Below the pieces are notes generated by a model. The model was not told the origin of the DNA, ran no database searches, and worked only from the letters and a program-made list of their open reading frames with translations. From NCBI GenBank assembly GCA_964591445.1, contig CAZQAW010000001.1, forward strand, positions 83,010-147,009: a stretch of DNA of 64,000 bases, read 5' to 3'. This document shows, piece by piece, positions 5,621 through 57,878 of the stretch; the stretch's first letter is position 1, and the number at the start of each line of letters is the position of its first letter. The stretch is from an uncultured Candidatus Saccharibacteria bacterium. GTDB lineage: Bacteria > Patescibacteriota > Minisyncoccia > Phycocordibacterales > UBA9973. Made by a program: the position numbers and the translations under genes.

Positions 5621-5663
5621 AATATGTCTACTCTACCTTATTTTGAAAAATAAATCAAATCTG

Positions 5664-5735
5664 AGCCGTCAATGAGAATCGGACTCATGGTCTCTGTCTT
5701 ACCAAGACAGTGCTTTACCACTAAGCTATGACGGC
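5664..5735 (-). tRNA. tRNA-Thr (anticodon GGU), 72 nt, no encoded CCA, atypical T-loop TCCGATT
   Basis: Hand-folded cloverleaf on minus strand: acceptor GCCGTCA/TGACGGC, D-stem GCTT/AAGC, anticodon stem CTGTC/GACAG, loop TTGGTAA, T-stem ATGAG/CTCAT. Confidence 0.7.
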
Positions 5736-5764
5736 ACATACAGAATGCGAAGCATACGCCCTAC

Positions 5765-5815
5765 CCCTCTCCTTTACAAGGAGAGGGTGCCCGAGGGATA
5801 CGGGCGGGTGAGGTC
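5765..5815 (+). repeat. Two-hairpin palindromic repeat element, copy A (CCCCTCTCCT-loop-AGGAGAGGG, second stem GCCCG..CGGGC, tail GGTGAGGT)
   Basis: Shares first stem, 3' tail and two-hairpin layout with the copies at 16529-16577 and 16930-16976. Confidence 0.6.
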
Positions 5816-5823
5816 TTTCAATC

Positions 5824-7083
5824 TTAAAACAATCCAACAATAACCGCAACTGCGGCCAAGCTCATAAGAAGAAATGTGATCCACCCTATTGCCGATTTCC
5901 ATGGACCACTTGCGTAATTCCCCATCACGTTTTTGTTTGAAGCAATTCTGACAATAAAATATAAAACGAACGGCGCAACAATGCCATTTCCAACAGCAGA
6001 ATAAATAAGCGCGTCGATCGGATCAATGCCAACGAAGTTTAAAATAATTCCAACAACGATCGAAAGCGCAATCACTCCATAAAACGCATATGCTTCACCA
6101 AGTTTTTTATTCAAACCGAAATTCCAGTGCATCATTTCTGAAAGCGCATACGCACTCGATCCGGCAAGCACTGGTATTGCAAGCATGCCCGTACCAATGA
6201 TGCCAACCGCAAAGAGCAGATACGCAAAATCTCCCGCAAAAGGTCGAAGTGCGCTTGCAGCATCAGCCGCAGACGCGATTGTATGGATACCCTGCATATG
6301 TAGCACTGCGCCCGAAACAGCGATGATGAAAAACATTACAACGTTTGAAACGAACATTCCGATCCACACGTCGGCATTCATATTTTTGAGATTTTGATCA
6401 ATCATGTTTTGAGTTCCTTCGCGCTCGTGCAACTCTTCTTCTTCAACTTCTTGCGACGTCTGCCAAAAGAAAAGATACGGAGAAATGGTCGTTCCAAGCA
6501 CAGCGCAGATAAGCAGCAGTTGGTCTTTTGCAAAAGTAATATGCGGAATCAGCGTGTGGCGAAAAATTTCCGACCAGTCAAACTTTATGAAAAACGCCGT
6601 TGCGATATATGACACAAGAACAAGCGCAAGGTACTTCAAATATTTCGCGTAATTTGCGTATGGGATAAACACTTGAAGCATAATACTGAGAACTCCAGCA
6701 AGGATAATAAATACATCCGGATGCACAGATGGAAATACAAGCTTCGCGGCTTCTCCTATCGCACCCAAGTCTGCACCAATGTTAAAAATATTTGTCGCAA
6801 GCAAAAGCACTGTCACTGTCATGAGCACAGGTTTTGGAAAATGTTCACGCATGTTCGCTGCCAACCCTTTTTTTGTAACGATACCAATGCGTGCACACAT
6901 TTCTTGTACCACGCCAGTAAGCGGAAATGTAAAAAGCGCAAGCCACAAAAAGCGAGTACCGTACTGGGCACCCGTTTGAGAATATGTTGCGATGCCTGAA
7001 GGATCATCGTCGGAAGCACCAACCACCAAGCCAGGCCCAAGTGTATGCCAGTATCGCTTCACGCGCTTTTTCATTTCGTCCAT
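5824..7083 (-). CDS. mntH: Nramp-family divalent metal (Mn2+/Fe2+) transporter
   Basis: 419-aa polytopic membrane protein. N-terminal GASDDDPSGIATYSQTGAQYG resembles the Nramp DPGN signature region. About 11 TM segments. Confidence 0.7.
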   Translation of the reverse strand: MDEMKKRVKRYWHTLGPGLVVGASDDDPSGIATYSQTGAQYGTRFLWLALFTFPLTGVVQEMCARIGIVTKKGLAANMREHFPKPVLMTVTVLLLATNIFNIGADLGAIGEAAKLVFPSVHPDVFIILAGVLSIMLQVFIPYANYAKYLKYLALVLVSYIATAFFIKFDWSEIFRHTLIPHITFAKDQLLLICAVLGTTISPYLFFWQTSQEVEEEELHEREGTQNMIDQNLKNMNADVWIGMFVSNVVMFFIIAVSGAVLHMQGIHTIASAADAASALRPFAGDFAYLLFAVGIIGTGMLAIPVLAGSSAYALSEMMHWNFGLNKKLGEAYAFYGVIALSIVVGIILNFVGIDPIDALIYSAVGNGIVAPFVLYFIVRIASNKNVMGNYASGPWKSAIGWITFLLMSLAAVAVIVGLF

Positions 7084-14827: not shown

Positions 14828-15016
14828 CCGGTGTTTTGTGGTTATTTTTTATAGCCTTATTATAGCATATTTGAAGCCCTTAAAGCGAGTGATTTATTAA
14901 CAGATTTCCTTGTATTTAGCCTTATTTTGTAAGGTTTTCTTGCTATTGACTTTTAACTATATATATGCTATTATGTATAGGAAATAAGTTAATTCTAACA
15001 ATTTAAAAATATACAT

Positions 15017-15304
15017 ATGAGCTATTTGAAAGTTAACAACCAACAGGAGTCAATTAGAACAACAGGGAGCTATTTGAGTTTCCTTAATTCTATTTCCTCA
15101 AACTCAACAAGTCCGGACTTTTTTAAAGTTACAACAGATGGCAGCAATAAGGCAAATGTTGATGAGTACTTATTAAGTATTCAAGAAATTAAGAAAGAAG
15201 ATGGTTCCGGTAAATCTTTTATGTTCAAAGCAACGGGTTATGCAGTTAAGAACGATAATCGCATACCAATAGCAGGAAACATTGAGGGTTACATACGATT
15301 TTAA
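15017..15304 (+). CDS. Hypothetical small protein (AT-rich)
   Basis: ORF with TTGACT-17-TATTAT promoter about 40 nt upstream and a terminator downstream. Confidence 0.35.
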   Translation: MSYLKVNNQQESIRTTGSYLSFLNSISSNSTSPDFFKVTTDGSNKANVDEYLLSIQEIKKEDGSGKSFMFKATGYAVKNDNRIPIAGNIEGYIRF

Positions 15305-15321
15305 TTATTAAGTTCAACACT

Positions 15322-15352
15322 AAAAACAGCAGGAAATTTCTTGCTGTTTTTT
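15322..15352. terminator. Bidirectional rho-independent terminator (between the small ORF and pheS)
   Basis: aaaaacagcaggaaatttcttgctgtttttt. Confidence 0.8.
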
Positions 15353-15354
15353 AT

Positions 15355-16494
15355 TTATCGAATAGTCGCATTAAAAACTTTTACTGTTTCCTCTTCAAGT
15401 TTTTTGTGCAGGTTGTTTACTTCTTCGTCTGTGAGTGTGCGGTCGAGAGATCGGTAGGTAATGCGGTACGCGTAGCTTTTCTTCCCTTCTCCAAATTTGG
15501 CGGCATTTTCATATTCGTCTACAAGCGCCATTTCTTCGGCCATGTCGCCTATCACGTCTCGAACCAAATCGAAATAATTGTTCGGCATGAAGTTTGCCGT
15601 ATCTACAACAAATGAAATGTCGCGAGTAACGGCTGGATATTTGCTGACTTCTTTAAATTTCTGTCCGAGTACAAGTTGCTTTGTAACGCGCTCGTCGTTA
15701 GACCAGAGCAAGCGAATGTCTGGAAGTTCCATAGAGATGATTGCGAGGCGTTCCAAGCCGAGCCCGAAAGCCCAACCAGTCCATTCGTCTGGGTTTACGC
15801 CAAGTTTTTTAAGCACACTTCCCTTCACAACTCCGGCGCCATTTACTTCAATCCACTTTCCGTCAACTTCAACTTCCATTTCCAAAGATGGATCGGTGTA
15901 CGGGAATGTGTCTGGGTTGAATCGGTATTTTACATCTTCTCCAAAAATTGCTTTTGCTGTATCCGCAAGCACACGTTCGAGTGTGTCGCGAGTAATGTTT
16001 TCTTTGTCTTTGCGCGCCAAATACCAGCCGTCGAGCTGATGAAAGACGTTCATATGACGGCGATCAATTTCGTCTTTTCTATATACTTTTCCGGTTGCAA
16101 ATGCGCCAACGCTTTCGCCCGACGCCATGCGTTTTTTAATTTCTTCGTTATGCAAATAGTAGTACCACATCACCGTCATCTGAGTGCGGAGAATGTGTTG
16201 TTCGTCTACATAGTACGTGTCAGATTTTGAGCGAGAAGGATGGTCGAGCGGAAAGTCGAAAAGATCGAAACCGATTTCAGTTGAAACAATTTCCGGAACT
16301 TCGATCATGTCAAAGTTTGCAAATTCTGCTCGAGAAGTTACTCGCTTTACCATTTCGTGGATCGGGCTGCCGGGAGTTCGAGCAAGGTCTGGCATGGCCA
16401 AATAGCGCTTCATGCGAGTAGCCTCGGCGTCAGAGCGCTCCAAAAGCATACCCATCAAAGCCTCCTTTTCTTCATTTGATATCTTGATTTCCAT
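15355..16494 (-). CDS. pheS: Phenylalanine--tRNA ligase alpha-type catalytic subunit with a C-terminal FDX-ACB (ferredoxin-fold anticodon-binding) domain, i.e. mitochondrial-like single-chain PheRS architecture
   Basis: Catalytic core motifs FPYTDPSLEMEV and GWAFGLGLERLAI. C-terminal about 100 aa SKYPAVTRDISFVVD...KKSYAYRITYRSLDRTLTDEEVN matches the FDX-ACB domain normally found at the PheT C-terminus. Confidence 0.85.
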   Translation of the reverse strand: MEIKISNEEKEALMGMLLERSDAEATRMKRYLAMPDLARTPGSPIHEMVKRVTSRAEFANFDMIEVPEIVSTEIGFDLFDFPLDHPSRSKSDTYYVDEQHILRTQMTVMWYYYLHNEEIKKRMASGESVGAFATGKVYRKDEIDRRHMNVFHQLDGWYLARKDKENITRDTLERVLADTAKAIFGEDVKYRFNPDTFPYTDPSLEMEVEVDGKWIEVNGAGVVKGSVLKKLGVNPDEWTGWAFGLGLERLAIISMELPDIRLLWSNDERVTKQLVLGQKFKEVSKYPAVTRDISFVVDTANFMPNNYFDLVRDVIGDMAEEMALVDEYENAAKFGEGKKSYAYRITYRSLDRTLTDEEVNNLHKKLEEETVKVFNATIR

Positions 16495-16524
16495 AGGGGG
16501 ATTATAGCGTAAAACGTGAGTTTT

Positions 16525-16929
16525 TCATACCTCACCCCGGACCTTCGGCCGACCCTCTCCTACCTCAGGAGAGGGGGAATTCAACTCTCTCATTATTTCC
16601 TGAACTACTACTTCTAAATTATTATTTATATCCTTATTCCAAAACCGCAGAACTTTTATACCAAACTCATTTAGAAATTGAGTACGTAATGTATCATACT
16701 CCTGATTTTCTAAATGCTGAGATCCATCAATTTCTATACATACCATTTTTCTTGGACAATAGAAATCAAGCACATAACCACCGACCGAATACTGTCTTCG
16801 AAATTTATACCCTAACTTATTATCTCGAATTTTTGCCCATAAAATAATCTCTTGCGGTGTTTGATTCTTTCGCAATTCTTTTCGCGCTATAATATTTGAT
16901 TTATCATTTCGTAAAAACATAGTGAGCAT
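16525..16929 (-). CDS. DUF559 (Vsr-like endonuclease fold) protein; ends of the ORF run into the flanking inverted repeats
   Basis: QTPQEIILWAKIRDNKLGYKFRRQYSVGGYVLDFYCPRKMVCIEIDGSQH typical DUF559. Confidence 0.7.
   Translation of the reverse strand: MLTMFLRNDKSNIIARKELRKNQTPQEIILWAKIRDNKLGYKFRRQYSVGGYVLDFYCPRKMVCIEIDGSQHLENQEYDTLRTQFLNEFGIKVLRFWNKDINNNLEVVVQEIMRELNSPSPEVGEGRPKVRGEV
16529..16577 (-). repeat. Two-hairpin palindromic repeat element, copy B (inverted relative to copy C); left terminal inverted repeat of the DUF559 unit
   Basis: Its reverse complement CCCCCTCTCCTGAGGTAGGAGAGGGT...GGGGTGAGGT is near-identical to copy C and related to copy A. Confidence 0.6.
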
Positions 16930-16976
16930 CCCCTTCTCCTGAGGTAGGAGAAGGTGGCCTTTAGGCCGGATGAGGT
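16930..16976 (+). repeat. Two-hairpin palindromic repeat element, copy C; right terminal inverted repeat of the DUF559 unit
   Basis: CCCCTTCTCCTGAGGTAGGAGAAGGTGGCCTTTAGGCCGGATGAGGT. Confidence 0.6.
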
Positions 16977-16979
16977 ATG

Positions 16980-18164
16980 TTAACTCAGCGGTTTCGAGCC
17001 CGTTTTCGCTTTCATACCCGAAAGCGGGATGGTGACGGTAAATGTCGTGCCTTGGTTTTCGCGAGACTCGAAGCTTATCATGCCACCAGATTGTTCAACA
17101 ATATTTTTAATGACGTAGAGGCCGAGGCCATTACCGTCGGTTACTTTGTCTGTGACGTTACTTGCACGATACAGCTTTGTAAACATTTTGCCTTGGTCAG
17201 CTTCCGGAATGCCGTAACCATTATCTTTGACTTTGATAACAAGGTCATTTGATTTTGTTTCAAGCACTACTTCGATAGTCCCTGACTCGGGAGTATATTT
17301 AATGGCGTTCGTTAACAAGTTTTGTATCACCATGCGTGAAAGCGTTGGGTCGGCGGAAACAATAGGAAGATCGGAAGCAATCGTTTTTATAAAATGCTGT
17401 TTCTTGGCATCGATACTTTGCTTGAGTTCGATTTCCAAACTCTCGACCATTTCTTTGAAGCTGGTCGGCGCAGGGTTTACTTGGAAAGTTCCAAGATCAA
17501 CACGAGAAACATTCAACAAATTATTTACAAGCGCAACCATGCGTTTATTGCTTTCATATACGTGAGTAATATATTCTTTCTGGTCTTCATTGAGCACACC
17601 TGCGTCTCCAGAAAGAAGCATTTCCGCGTACCAGCTGATGGTCGAAAGTGGGGTGCGAAGTTGATGGGCGGCAAGCGAAACGAATTCCGTTTTAGATTTG
17701 TCGACGGCTTTTTCGGCGGCAATGTTACGAAACATAACAATACCAGCAATACCAAGCGTCGCGTCGCGCCCAAGAAATGAAGTAACCGAAAGAACGATTG
17801 GGGCTTCTTCCTTTCCTGTATCTTTGATAGAAATATTGTTGTACGGATACATACGCACAATAGTTTGTTCCGATAGAGCTTGAAAAACAGGAGACTCTTC
17901 TTTTGGAAGTTCTTTGCCGTCTTTATAGAGCGGCATGATTTGGAAAATAGGCTTGCCCAACGCGTCGCCTTCGGCGACGCGCAGCATGATCGAAGCCGCC
18001 TGGTTCATAAGCACAATCTGATAGTTCGCATCAATACCAACTAAGCCTTCCGTCATCGAAGAGAAGATGACATTTGTCTTTCTTTGTTCGCGAGCAAGCG
18101 ACTCTTCAAGGGCATGAACACGGCCCGCAAGATCTTCAATTTTCCTGCCGTGATCGTTGTCCAT
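16980..18164 (-). CDS. Cytoplasmic sensor histidine kinase (PAS + HisKA + HATPase_c, no TM segments)
   Basis: H-box LAAHQLRTPLSTISWYAEML. N, G1/G2 boxes NLLTNAIKYT, DNGYGIP, GNGLGL. PAS-like N-terminus. Confidence 0.85.
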   Translation of the reverse strand: MDNDHGRKIEDLAGRVHALEESLAREQRKTNVIFSSMTEGLVGIDANYQIVLMNQAASIMLRVAEGDALGKPIFQIMPLYKDGKELPKEESPVFQALSEQTIVRMYPYNNISIKDTGKEEAPIVLSVTSFLGRDATLGIAGIVMFRNIAAEKAVDKSKTEFVSLAAHQLRTPLSTISWYAEMLLSGDAGVLNEDQKEYITHVYESNKRMVALVNNLLNVSRVDLGTFQVNPAPTSFKEMVESLEIELKQSIDAKKQHFIKTIASDLPIVSADPTLSRMVIQNLLTNAIKYTPESGTIEVVLETKSNDLVIKVKDNGYGIPEADQGKMFTKLYRASNVTDKVTDGNGLGLYVIKNIVEQSGGMISFESRENQGTTFTVTIPLSGMKAKTGSKPLS

Positions 18165-18176
18165 GTTAAAGCTCTG

Positions 18177-18617
18177 TTATCGAGTAACGCTAATGGTCGC
18201 ACTGTTTTCTGCACTTGGAGCAGTGACAGTTACTCGGTTATTTGCGTTCTTAAATATTGCATACTTTGTGGAATTCGAAGTAGCTGTTGAAGGATCACTT
18301 GGTAAAGCTACGAGATATTTTTCATTTGCAGTTAGGACACTCAGATCCACCAACCCTGTACATGTACCACCAGTTGCGCAAATTTCTGTTACTGATGTAG
18401 TAATATTTGCTGGAAGAGTGTTCGTATCAATAGTGTATTGATACACTGCATTCAAAATAGTGTTCACATCTGCTCGACGCTGAGCGTTGCGAGTATCGCC
18501 CAATTGCTTGATCGGGTTGATAGCAAGGATGACGATACCTGCCAAAATAGCGATAGCCGCAACCACAAGCAAAATTTCAATAAGCGTAAAACCTTTGTTT
18601 GTATGTATTTTATTCAT
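18177..18617 (-). CDS. Type IV pilin (prepilin-type N-terminal cleavage/methylation signal)
   Basis: MNKIHTNKGFTLIEILLVVAAIAILAGIV. Confidence 0.85.
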   Translation of the reverse strand: MNKIHTNKGFTLIEILLVVAAIAILAGIVILAINPIKQLGDTRNAQRRADVNTILNAVYQYTIDTNTLPANITTSVTEICATGGTCTGLVDLSVLTANEKYLVALPSDPSTATSNSTKYAIFKNANNRVTVTAPSAENSATISVTR

Positions 18618-18623
18618 ATAAAA

Positions 18624-19070
18624 TTAACTTTCTACTTCTTGCCACGATACGACTTCTATCATGGGATTAATCTTGGTAATGCGCACTTGTTCCTTTCGGA
18701 CGATGGTATTAACGATGCCTGTTGATAAAATATTTCTATCCGTTCCGCCGAGATTCGTAACAGTATATGTGCACGAACCATTTGTAAAGACGAGCGACCC
18801 AGTGCCTGTATATGAAGAGAGGTCGCGTATTTGCTGCAAAGCCTCTTCTGTGCATGCGTGTGAAAGCGCTTGCGCCTGGTTTGATTGAGTAAAGACAATA
18901 CTGTTTTGTGTGGCAATCACACCCGAAAGAAGCAGCGTTGCTGTTACGGCAATACCTACCGCACCAACAATGAGCACGGAAAGTAACGTCACATACCCAT
19001 GCTCTTTATTATACCAAGGATTATTCAACTGTAGGTTCTTTATATTGTGCATAACCACAGATACAATCAT
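18624..19070 (-). CDS. Putative minor pilin/pseudopilin-like protein (hydrophobic N-terminal helix, non-canonical leader)
   Basis: EHGYVTLLSVLIVGAVGIAVTATLLL followed by a Thr/Asn-rich beta region; located inside the pilin gene row. Confidence 0.45.
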   Translation of the reverse strand: MIVSVVMHNIKNLQLNNPWYNKEHGYVTLLSVLIVGAVGIAVTATLLLSGVIATQNSIVFTQSNQAQALSHACTEEALQQIRDLSSYTGTGSLVFTNGSCTYTVTNLGGTDRNILSTGIVNTIVRKEQVRITKINPMIEVVSWQEVES

Positions 19071-57578: not shown

Positions 57579-57878
57579 ATTAGATTTACTTTTGCGTTTT
57601 TAGTGATAAAACCTAGTGATAAGACGCAAAAAGCCCACCACATAGGTAGAGACCGAAGTCTCTCATATCAGTTTCCCGATACGGCATATCACGCGACCCC
57701 ATATGATGGGTTCTTTATGCGTGATATGACTAACTTTCACCATGCCTTTATTTCTAAAGGTTTAGGCTACTTAAACTATTAACTTGTAAAGAAATTATAC
57801 CTTATTTTTTAAGGTTGCACCATATTAGCTCACATTTAAATATTTGTGTAGTCTAGTTATCAACAGGTTAGTAGCATG

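Follow-up and report, generated by a model that had tools for sequence, protein, structure and literature searches.

The DUF559 Cassette and Its Repeats

The window considered here, i.e., the whole stretch of DNA that was analysed, comprises 64,000 nucleotides of contig CAZQAW010000001.1 (assembly GCA_964591445.1) from an uncultured Candidatus Saccharibacteria bacterium. It carries a small gene of the DUF559 family, which encodes a predicted Vsr-like nuclease and is accompanied on both sides by a structured repeat. On the minus strand, the elements follow one another in the order histidine kinase (HK) gene, repeat copy C, DUF559 open reading frame (ORF), repeat copy B, and pheS (Table 1). The DUF559 gene and its two inverted modules, which belong to the triplex-motif repeats discussed below, form a compact cassette inserted as a whole between HK and pheS. 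An initial annotation of this DNA had described a DUF559 gene bracketed by inverted copies of a two-hairpin repeat of about 47 bp, with a third, dispersed copy beside a tRNA-Thr gene, and all three copies (A, B, and C) are confirmed.

Each unit is 47–52 nt long and consists of a hairpin of 9–10 bp, pyrimidine in its 5' arm and purine in its 3' arm, a small GC hairpin (hp2), and then the sequence GG(G/A)TGAGGT. Copies B and C are mutually inverted, and the inverted-repeat search returned a 27-nt arm with 93% complementarity and the terminal arm CATACCTCA/TGAGGTATG. The sequence of hp2 varies among the three copies of the window and its pairing is retained. All three units lie outside host genes, copy A in an 88-nt gap between the tRNA-Thr gene and a 419-aa ORF. 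The core pattern of the repeat occurs at these three sites only within the window, versus 0.00 expected from 100 shuffles, and no Rfam family was found at the DUF559/repeat locus, either by gathering or by E-value threshold.

The predicted DUF559 protein matches its Pfam family with 120.7 bits (cut-off 20.6, E = 3.2e-35), DUF559 and MTES_1575 being its only Pfam matches. The ATG at the start of the shorter ORF (MFLRND...), which is common to the relatives L001 and L002 described below, is more likely to be the conserved start than the upstream ATG of the longer version. Residues D52, E63, D65, H69, and R92/F93 are invariant among 45 DUF559 homologues. The nearest solved structure, found by sequence, is 3HRL (E = 7e-32), and the AF2 model (pLDDT 83) matches 3HRL (TM-score 0.88), the homing endonuclease I-Bth0305I (TM-score 0.78, probability 1.00), and, weakly, Vsr in Foldseek. 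The predicted restriction-endonuclease-like fold and the conserved acidic/His catalytic residues are as expected. About 17 C-terminal codons (SPSPEVGEGRPKVRGEV) are encoded by copy B and are disordered in the model (pLDDT about 40). The initial annotation had both ends of the ORF reading into the repeats, which holds for this 3' end but not for the 5' end, where the repeat abuts the gene and the conserved start is not overlapped. The GC content of the gene body is 32–33%, versus 44–49% in the neighbouring genes, and the gene is single-copy within the window.

No activity or target has been reported for the DUF559 family in the open-access literature. PADLOC returned only weak, domain-level matches, to DpdF, mREase_II, and Hhe, and membership in a defence system was dropped for this reason. 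The ORF list and Pfam matches of the window contain neither restriction-modification genes beside the cassette nor a DDE, HUH, or recombinase partner near the DUF559 gene. Foldseek also matches the model to large-subunit mitoribosomal proteins of Toxoplasma and Tetrahymena and to the restriction-like endonuclease domain of the R2 retrotransposon, which suggests that DUF559-like folds may have been reused in these proteins.

Filled and Empty Alleles of the Insertion Site

The cassette is dispensable. The orthologous pheS–HK junction without the insert is found in the Logan contig L083, whose flanks are 95–100% identical to the window over more than 3 kb; here, the HK stop codon is followed by 28 nt and then by pheS, and the DUF559 gene and the repeats are absent together, so that about 500 nt in the window stand in place of 14 nt. 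Since gene and repeats are both missing from the empty allele, the repeats came with the gene and do not represent a pre-existing hotspot. On the HK side of the junction, where identity drops to 93–95% over 200 bp, the last HK codons have been re-coded synonymously, and the spacer on the pheS side has diverged from that of the empty allele (Table 1). This synonymous re-coding and the diverged spacer suggest that two old alleles were swapped by recombination.

At the same HK–pheS site, the cassette is also present, again with its repeats, in two relatives that are more distant, L001 and L002. The DUF559 gene has diverged from these relatives in step with its flanks (nucleotide identities of 82/80/82% for L001 and 74.5/66/66% for L002), and its dN/dS of 0.10–0.16 in both comparisons indicates that the protein is under purifying selection. 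The repeat cores are ~100% conserved among the three genomes despite dS values of 0.9–1.6: copy C differs by at most one substitution from the corresponding units, with flanking genes that are 66–82% identical, and the first hairpin (hp1) and tail of copy B are identical in L001 and L002, hp2 being replaced in L002. The cassette has therefore been retained vertically for a long time under selection. Relatives of pheS at 75–79% identity have other upstream neighbours and are uninformative on the cassette.

The Repeat as a Variant of the Box C/PIT/TM Motif

Judged by its sequence, the window repeat is a variant of the described box C/PIT/"TM" intrastrand-triplex motif (class II purine motif), in which the conserved GGTGAGGT tail is the predicted third strand and the second small hairpin of the initial annotation lies within loop 2. 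The class and its triad rules were described by Holder et al. 2015 (PMC4666352), who cite earlier work on box C and work on PIT elements from the Maher group; box C is also treated in PMC2267715. In both the window repeat and the known motif, a loop separates the pyrimidine arm from the purine arm and a second loop leads to a G-rich third strand with the same triads, and both occur as dispersed copies, frequently in inverted pairs, with a link to local genome variability. Moreover, the box C consensus GGGAGAGGG...GGGTGAGGG is almost identical to the window repeat. Loop 1 measures 3–5 nt, whereas loop 2 measures 13–18 nt and contains its own GC hairpin, which places it outside the ITxF range of 1–6 nt. 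The window unit is thus a variant architecture, since its second loop is long and hairpin-forming. Further differences are the Patescibacteria-type host and the units found in frame inside genes of related genomes, TMECOs being always intergenic.

With the third strand antiparallel to the purine arm, copies A, B, and C each reach 9/9 allowed triads (G*G.C, A*A.T, T*A.T), and a three-way covariation is seen where copy C has T.A*A and copy B has C.G*G. Over all loci of the survey described in the next section, a perfect 8/8 third strand follows 21% of hairpin-strand instances versus 0.6% with shuffled flanks, i.e., a ~34-fold excess. In a comparison of 100 arm types, restricted beforehand to units with 7/8 or more triads, a tail agreed with the purine arm of its own unit at 7.2/8 positions, versus 4.5/8 for permuted partners. 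The pyrimidine arm is the 5' one in 156 of 159 flanking hairpins of relatives, and these hairpins show no G.U excess on the sense strand (9 GT vs. 17 AC). Since the third strand covaries and a G.U bias is lacking, the motif appears to act as DNA rather than as RNA, and a sense-strand RNA structure was ruled out on the same grounds.

Several published properties of these elements are relevant here (all PMC4666352). E. coli MG1655 contains 23 TM copies, all intergenic and five of them in inverted pairs, and TMECO single strands form a stable triplex in vitro. Purine-motif triplexes do not form in RNA, and PIT elements showed neither promoter nor terminator activity. Rearrangement is much more extensive around the E. 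coli TM motifs than in intergenic control regions, the link being a statistical one.

DUF559 Genes and Triplex-Motif Repeats across Bacteria

The pairing of gene and repeat was surveyed in 80 genome loci with DUF559 relatives (84 DUF559 genes) from Patescibacteria, alpha-, gamma-, and delta-proteobacteria, Chloroflexi, Bacteroidota, Nitrospirota, and others. A hairpin lies within 150 bp upstream of 68 of the 84 genes (81%), compared with a background of 0.035 per 160 bp, and a downstream hairpin accompanies 52, with both sides occupied in 44. The association is strong and spans many phyla, and the initial suggestion of a structured repeat, like REPs (repetitive extragenic palindromes) or bacterial interspersed mosaic elements, with which DUF559 genes associate is borne out. 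In 44 genes, the downstream pyrimidine arm begins at -5 to +30 nt from the end of the conserved domain, and this fixed position explains the SPSP, PSPLQGEG, PLLNKERVG, and PPPNVGGG tails of DUF559 proteins in databases. When orientation is judged from the side on which the third strand lies, 31 of the 36 orientable loci (86%) have inverted flanking units and the remaining 5 have direct ones. An earlier orientation test by Smith–Waterman comparison of flanks (25 inverted, 23 direct) was discarded, being confounded by the palindromic hairpin and by multiple units.

A further repeat copy occurs within about 10 kb in only 34 of the 84 loci, which rules out a high-copy, REP-like abundance near DUF559. 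Carriage by phages was rejected, as 50,697 phage records contained only 3 weak DUF559 matches. Among predicted inversion targets, in contrast, DUF559 genes are over-represented, with an odds ratio of 14.3 (PMC9881135). One type I restriction-modification operon (L045, 9140-9990) holds four tandem repeats of 220 bp upstream of an intact DUF559 gene, each combining the 3' end of hsdS with two triplex-motif units and the initial seven codons of DUF559; here, DUF559 lies between hsdS and hsdR and the junction has been tandemly duplicated.

The upstream hairpins could also mean that the flanking modules control or insulate a toxic nuclease gene in cis, through translational masking, mRNA ends, or replication and transcription barriers, with the nuclease working elsewhere, e.g., in mismatch repair or in defence beside restriction-modification genes. 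Hairpins sequester the ribosome-binding site of free-standing Vsr-like homing endonuclease genes (PMC2677866), the GTG start of the E. coli DUF559 gene ycjD is buried in a perfect 15-bp AT-rich hairpin, and the purine arm is Shine–Dalgarno-like. Many DUF559 genes also reside in restriction-modification or methylase loci, and the weak PADLOC matches point the same way. However, the distance from hairpin to start (-2 to 130 nt, as estimated) is too variable for ribosome-site masking, the hairpin ends 42–173 nt before the conserved codon 13, and the module also occurs downstream of genes and as solo units far from any DUF559 gene, so that masking was rejected as a general role of the upstream hairpin. 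Moreover, covariation between third strand and purine arm is sensible for DNA but not for RNA, the G.U bias is missing, PIT elements showed no activity as promoter or terminator, and the window cassette has no restriction-modification neighbours. We consider such control in cis improbable.

It is still harder to credit a classical cut-and-paste transposon with terminal inverted repeats (TIRs), in which DUF559 would be the transposase and the solo copies would be miniature inverted-repeat transposable elements (MITEs). Two opposite end layouts exist and 5 of the 36 orientable loci have direct flanks; besides, the filled/empty junction carries no target-site duplication, no DDE, HUH, or recombinase partner is nearby, the 115-aa nuclease domain has no known strand-transfer chemistry, and the single-copy gene has diverged along with its flanks. 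In its favour are the terminal inverted repeats themselves, the presence/absence polymorphism, and solo units that resemble fused ends, and a PD-(D/E)xK nuclease can take part in transposition, as TnsA of Tn7 does. Presence or absence at one site between close relatives is seen here, as with homing-type elements, but a strict MITE/TIR version of the initial proposal is not supported, given the lack of a target-site duplication. Regulation alone is a less likely reading, and so is the classical TIR transposon.

Solo Repeats and In-Frame Insertions

A metagenome scan for the two-part unit gave at least 120 matching stretches, and together with solo copy A in the window these show that the repeat is not confined to the DUF559 locus. 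Among the matches listed, which give 102 units in 80 loci, 41 units are flanked in both directions by 600 nt or more without DUF559. An outer stem, ACCTCACCCC/GGGGTGAGGT, closes the complete solo units, some of which are symmetric, with a hairpin on either side of a central one, thereby resembling the cassette minus its gene. Solo repeats greatly outnumber DUF559 genes, which makes the relation between gene and repeat closer to that of REPs and REP-associated tyrosine transposases (RAYTs) than to that of TIRs and a transposase. Two hot-spring metagenome contigs, L091 and L136, contain dense arrays of near-identical symmetric units (5 and 10 matches, respectively) without DUF559, at a spacing of about 120–220 bp (about 175 bp in L136).

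Cassettes are also found in frame within genes. In a Rickettsiales valS, the cassette forms an insert of ~212 aa that replaces 13 residues of the T. thermophilus enzyme, and further in-frame cassettes occur in an MmeI/PglX-like methylase gene, an Anaerolineae methylase gene, a Mur-ligase-like gene, and an MpaA-like peptidase gene, the last at the same position in two Bacteroidales. Solo hairpin pairs with no DUF559 nearby are translated in frame in ftsK (L008, 14871-17141) and truB (L020, 5562-6431). All-pyrimidine and all-purine arms cannot contain a stop codon in any frame on either strand, and these stop-free arms explain why the DUF559 ORF reads into its repeat and why in-frame cassettes and solo units survive. 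The boundaries of the in-frame cassettes are repeat-encoded peptides rich in P, S, and G and not Hint splicing blocks, and a PDB sequence search with two of the host ORFs returned the host enzyme and 3HRL only. An intein or intron reading was rejected, as neither Hint blocks nor an intron-sized structured RNA were seen, Pfam not having been run on the host ORFs. In their placement, the solo units in ftsK and truB and the cassette in Rickettsiales valS resemble the Rickettsia palindromic elements (RPEs), i.e., palindromic repeats translated in frame in essential genes, and differ from the window units, which lie outside genes; no nuclease is known to be associated with RPEs.

The ycjD Gene and the sapF–fabI Site of E. 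coli

NGO0050 of N. gonorrhoeae (3HRL) and YcjD of E. coli (NF007294, E = 1.5e-27) are the closest structure-characterised or named relatives of the window protein, and both are functionally uncharacterised. The window protein reaches 96 bits against the NF007294 equivalog cut-off of 218 and, being below it, is not an orthologue of YcjD. The ycjD gene of strain K-12 is packaged in the same manner as the other DUF559 genes and shares the SPSP-stop junction with a pyrimidine/purine hairpin: its protein ends in ...ELNRRSPSP-stop inside a degenerate hairpin of this kind. Within the corresponding K-12 region (L210, NC_000913.3, 5180-5800), ycjD is followed by the remnant of another DUF559 3' end and then by a perfect box C, which is situated upstream of fabI. 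Box C was first described at this site, by fabI and next to ycjD.

Of 5426 complete E. coli genomes, 3378 carry ycjD. At the sapF–fabI site, this gene has replaced eefRABCD at least twice, and ycjD-less strains carry eefRABCD there (PMC12817139) or, in the strain inspected, an island of MFS/efflux genes. A clean empty site was sought and rejected for E. coli, because ycjD-less strains carry another island at this position.

The alternation at this site bears on the main rival explanation, in which the DUF559 gene is a passenger in a fragile site: unstable triplex repeats would accumulate small accessory genes, and the nuclease would not act on the repeats. Besides the alternation of eefRABCD and ycjD, the rearranged surroundings of the E. 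coli TM motifs, the excess of solo units over DUF559 genes, the persistence of box C-like copies in ycjD-less E. coli genomes, and a second variable islet 1.2 kb away in the window are all in keeping with a passenger. Nonetheless, the association is a specific one, with a hairpin within 150 bp of 81% of the DUF559 genes, 86% of the orientable pairs are inverted, and the point at which the last codons of the gene enter the pyrimidine arm is constant between E. coli and Patescibacteria; moreover, the empty allele is devoid of repeats and gene alike. A passenger role is rather unlikely, but it is the main rival.

A Putative Partnership of Nuclease and Repeat

In REP/RAYT systems, one nuclease gene lies between inverted copies of a structured repeat that is dispersed at higher copy number; the RAYT gene is vertically inherited and under selection, and REPs are short GC-rich palindromes that fold in single-stranded DNA. 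The window resembles these systems in that its nuclease gene is flanked by inverted copies of a more numerous dispersed repeat and has likewise been passed on vertically and maintained by selection. However, RAYTs are HUH/Y1 transposases whereas DUF559 has a Vsr-like PD-(D/E)xK fold, the window repeats carry a triplex third strand and not a GTAG/CGTC tag, and a REP/RAYT-like role is proposed by analogy. Since the protein has only DUF559/MTES_1575 domains and a Vsr-like fold, the window system is REPtron-like at most and not a member of that class.

A second parallel is offered by "fractured genes" and by free-standing EDxHD Vsr-like homing endonucleases such as I-Bth0305I (PDB 3R3P; Dassa et al. 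2009, PMC2677866), whose catalytic fold is related to that of the window protein. Genes of this kind are likewise inserted in or between conserved genes, are present or absent between close relatives, and have hairpins just upstream of the endonuclease ORF (PMC2677866). In contrast, homing endonucleases carry extra DNA-binding domains, occur mainly in phages, introns, and split inteins, and break the host gene, whereas the window protein is a bare domain of ~115 aa bounded by triplex repeats and cassettes within genes are read through in frame.

The explanation that we favour, with a probability of roughly 0.5, is a REP/RAYT-like or homing-like partnership in which the DUF559 protein acts on the triplex motif, by a mechanism that we infer as follows. 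The protein would be a Mg-dependent nickase or endonuclease of the Vsr fold, and it would act on the triplex-motif module in folded or palindromic form, most plausibly while replication or repair leaves this module single-stranded. A cut at a module or at the empty allele would lead to recombinational repair, which would copy or retain the cassette and homogenise or disperse the modules, in a functional parallel to a RAYT nuclease with its REP repeats or to a free-standing homing endonuclease. Such an action would fit the instability of regions around the motif, the enrichment of DUF559 among inversion targets, and the replacement between ycjD and eefRABCD. The in-frame cassettes and the occurrence of ycjD in only part of the E. 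coli genomes are further signs of mobility.

Several observations weigh against this partnership. The link between nuclease and repeat is purely associative, and Holder et al. did not detect the triplex in double-stranded DNA or in vivo (PMC4666352). In the comparison of the window with L083, the filled and empty alleles are related by substitution and not by a clean insertion, and this comparison shows no target-site duplication; with its long vertical inheritance, the window locus gives no sign of recent movement. The inverted pairs adopt two layouts, with third strands facing the gene in 24 and pointing outward in 7, including the window. Furthermore, a DUF559 gene is nearby in only 2 of the 80 repeat-containing metagenome loci among the matches listed, and box C-like copies occur in 5148 E. 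coli genomes, compared with the 3378 that have ycjD.

Coordinates and Neighbouring Features

The coordinates of the cassette, of the solo copy, and of the surrounding features are collected in Table 1.

Table 1. Cassette, repeat units, and other features of the window (positions count from its first nucleotide; Y, pyrimidine; R, purine).
Feature	Positions	Strand	Remarks
HK gene	16980-18164	-	
Left junction with the empty allele	16980-16988	-	last HK codons CTG AGT TAA versus CTT TCG TAG in L083; synonymous
Repeat copy C	16930-16976	+	to 16979 with terminal ATG (16977-16979); upstream of DUF559 in gene orientation
Copy C, Y arm	16930-16940		
Copy C, loop	16941-16945		
Copy C, R arm	16946-16954		
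Copy C, hp2	16956-16967		
Copy C, third strand	16968-16976		GGATGAGGT
DUF559 gene	16525-16920	-	Vsr-like PD-(D/E)xK nuclease; 131 aa; ATG at 16920; Pfam PF04480
DUF559 ORF, longer version	16525-16929	-	from alternative upstream ATG at 16929
Repeat copy B	16529-16577	-	from 16526 with terminal CAT (16526-16528); DUF559 3' end
Copy B, hp1	16553-16577		
Copy B, hp2	16539-16551		
Copy B, third-strand complement	16529-16538		ACCTCACCCC
Right junction and spacer to pheS	16495-16525	-	homologous to empty-allele spacer; diverged beyond background
-10 box of pheS	16495-16510	-	
pheS	15355-16494	-	
Strain-variable islet	14841-15365		between pheS and gyrB
Islet ORF	15017-15304	+	
Solo repeat copy A	5764-5814	+	beside tRNA-Thr
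Copy A, Y arm	5764-5774		
Copy A, R arm	5778-5787		
Copy A, hp2	5789-5805		
Copy A, third strand	5806-5814	+	GGGTGAGGT
tRNA-Thr gene	5663-5735	-	
ORF beside copy A	5824-7083		419 aa
Two small ORFs beside HK	18177-19070	-	146 and 148 aa
LOOT RNA	57648-57768	-	Rfam RF03000

The pheS gene encodes a single-chain PheRS with a tRNA-synt_2d core and a C-terminal FDX-ACB domain, a mitochondrial-like architecture that recurs in more than 100 Patescibacteria-type homologues. The pheS ATG is preceded at 7 nt by a -10 box, without a Shine–Dalgarno sequence; the box reads TATAAT in the filled alleles (L001, 700-716; L002, 813-829) and TGcTAAAGT in the empty one (L083, 1000-1016), which suggests that the pheS mRNA may be leaderless. 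In the islet between pheS and gyrB, the window ORF is swapped in L083 for unrelated sequence with a 129-aa ORF on the opposite strand. The N-terminus of the first small ORF beside the HK gene is type IV pilin/pseudopilin-like (FTLIEILLVVAAIAILA), and that of the second contains a hydrophobic segment. Elsewhere in the window, a LOOT RNA is matched over its full length with 73.6 bits (gathering threshold 46.4).

Implications

Both components of the cassette were already known, and their coupling would be the new part. Within the open-access literature, no paper links DUF559 to box C, and papers on ycjD and DUF559 do not mention box C; PMC4666352 contains no mention of ycjD, DUF559, or endonuclease. 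Catalogues of the box C/PIT/TM repeats go back to the 1990s for E. coli and to 2015 for hundreds of genomes, but no function has been assigned to these repeats; DUF559 is a very large nuclease family, equally without an assigned function. Their coupling merges both questions into a single one, which can be addressed in E. coli K-12 as the possible action of YcjD on box C. It is also a candidate explanation for the instability near the motifs and the enrichment of DUF559 in invertible segments, as well as for the "PSP...GEG"-type tails of DUF559 proteins and the in-frame inserts in host genes.

Tentatively, and at somewhat less than even odds, DUF559 proteins may be the missing cognate nucleases of the box C/PIT/triplex repeats, which would amount to a second, HUH-independent system of a repeat and a domesticated or selfish nuclease, similar to REP/RAYT. 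If so, this system would span Patescibacteria, Proteobacteria (including ycjD and NGO0050), Bacteroidota, Chloroflexi, and others, and an intrastrand DNA triplex or hairpin would be the target by which its enzyme causes repeats to spread, invert, and become locally unstable, with stop-free arms that could let whole cassettes persist in frame in essential genes such as valS. Should the folded triplex itself be recognised, DUF559 would represent a structure-specific nuclease of a kind undescribed in bacteria.

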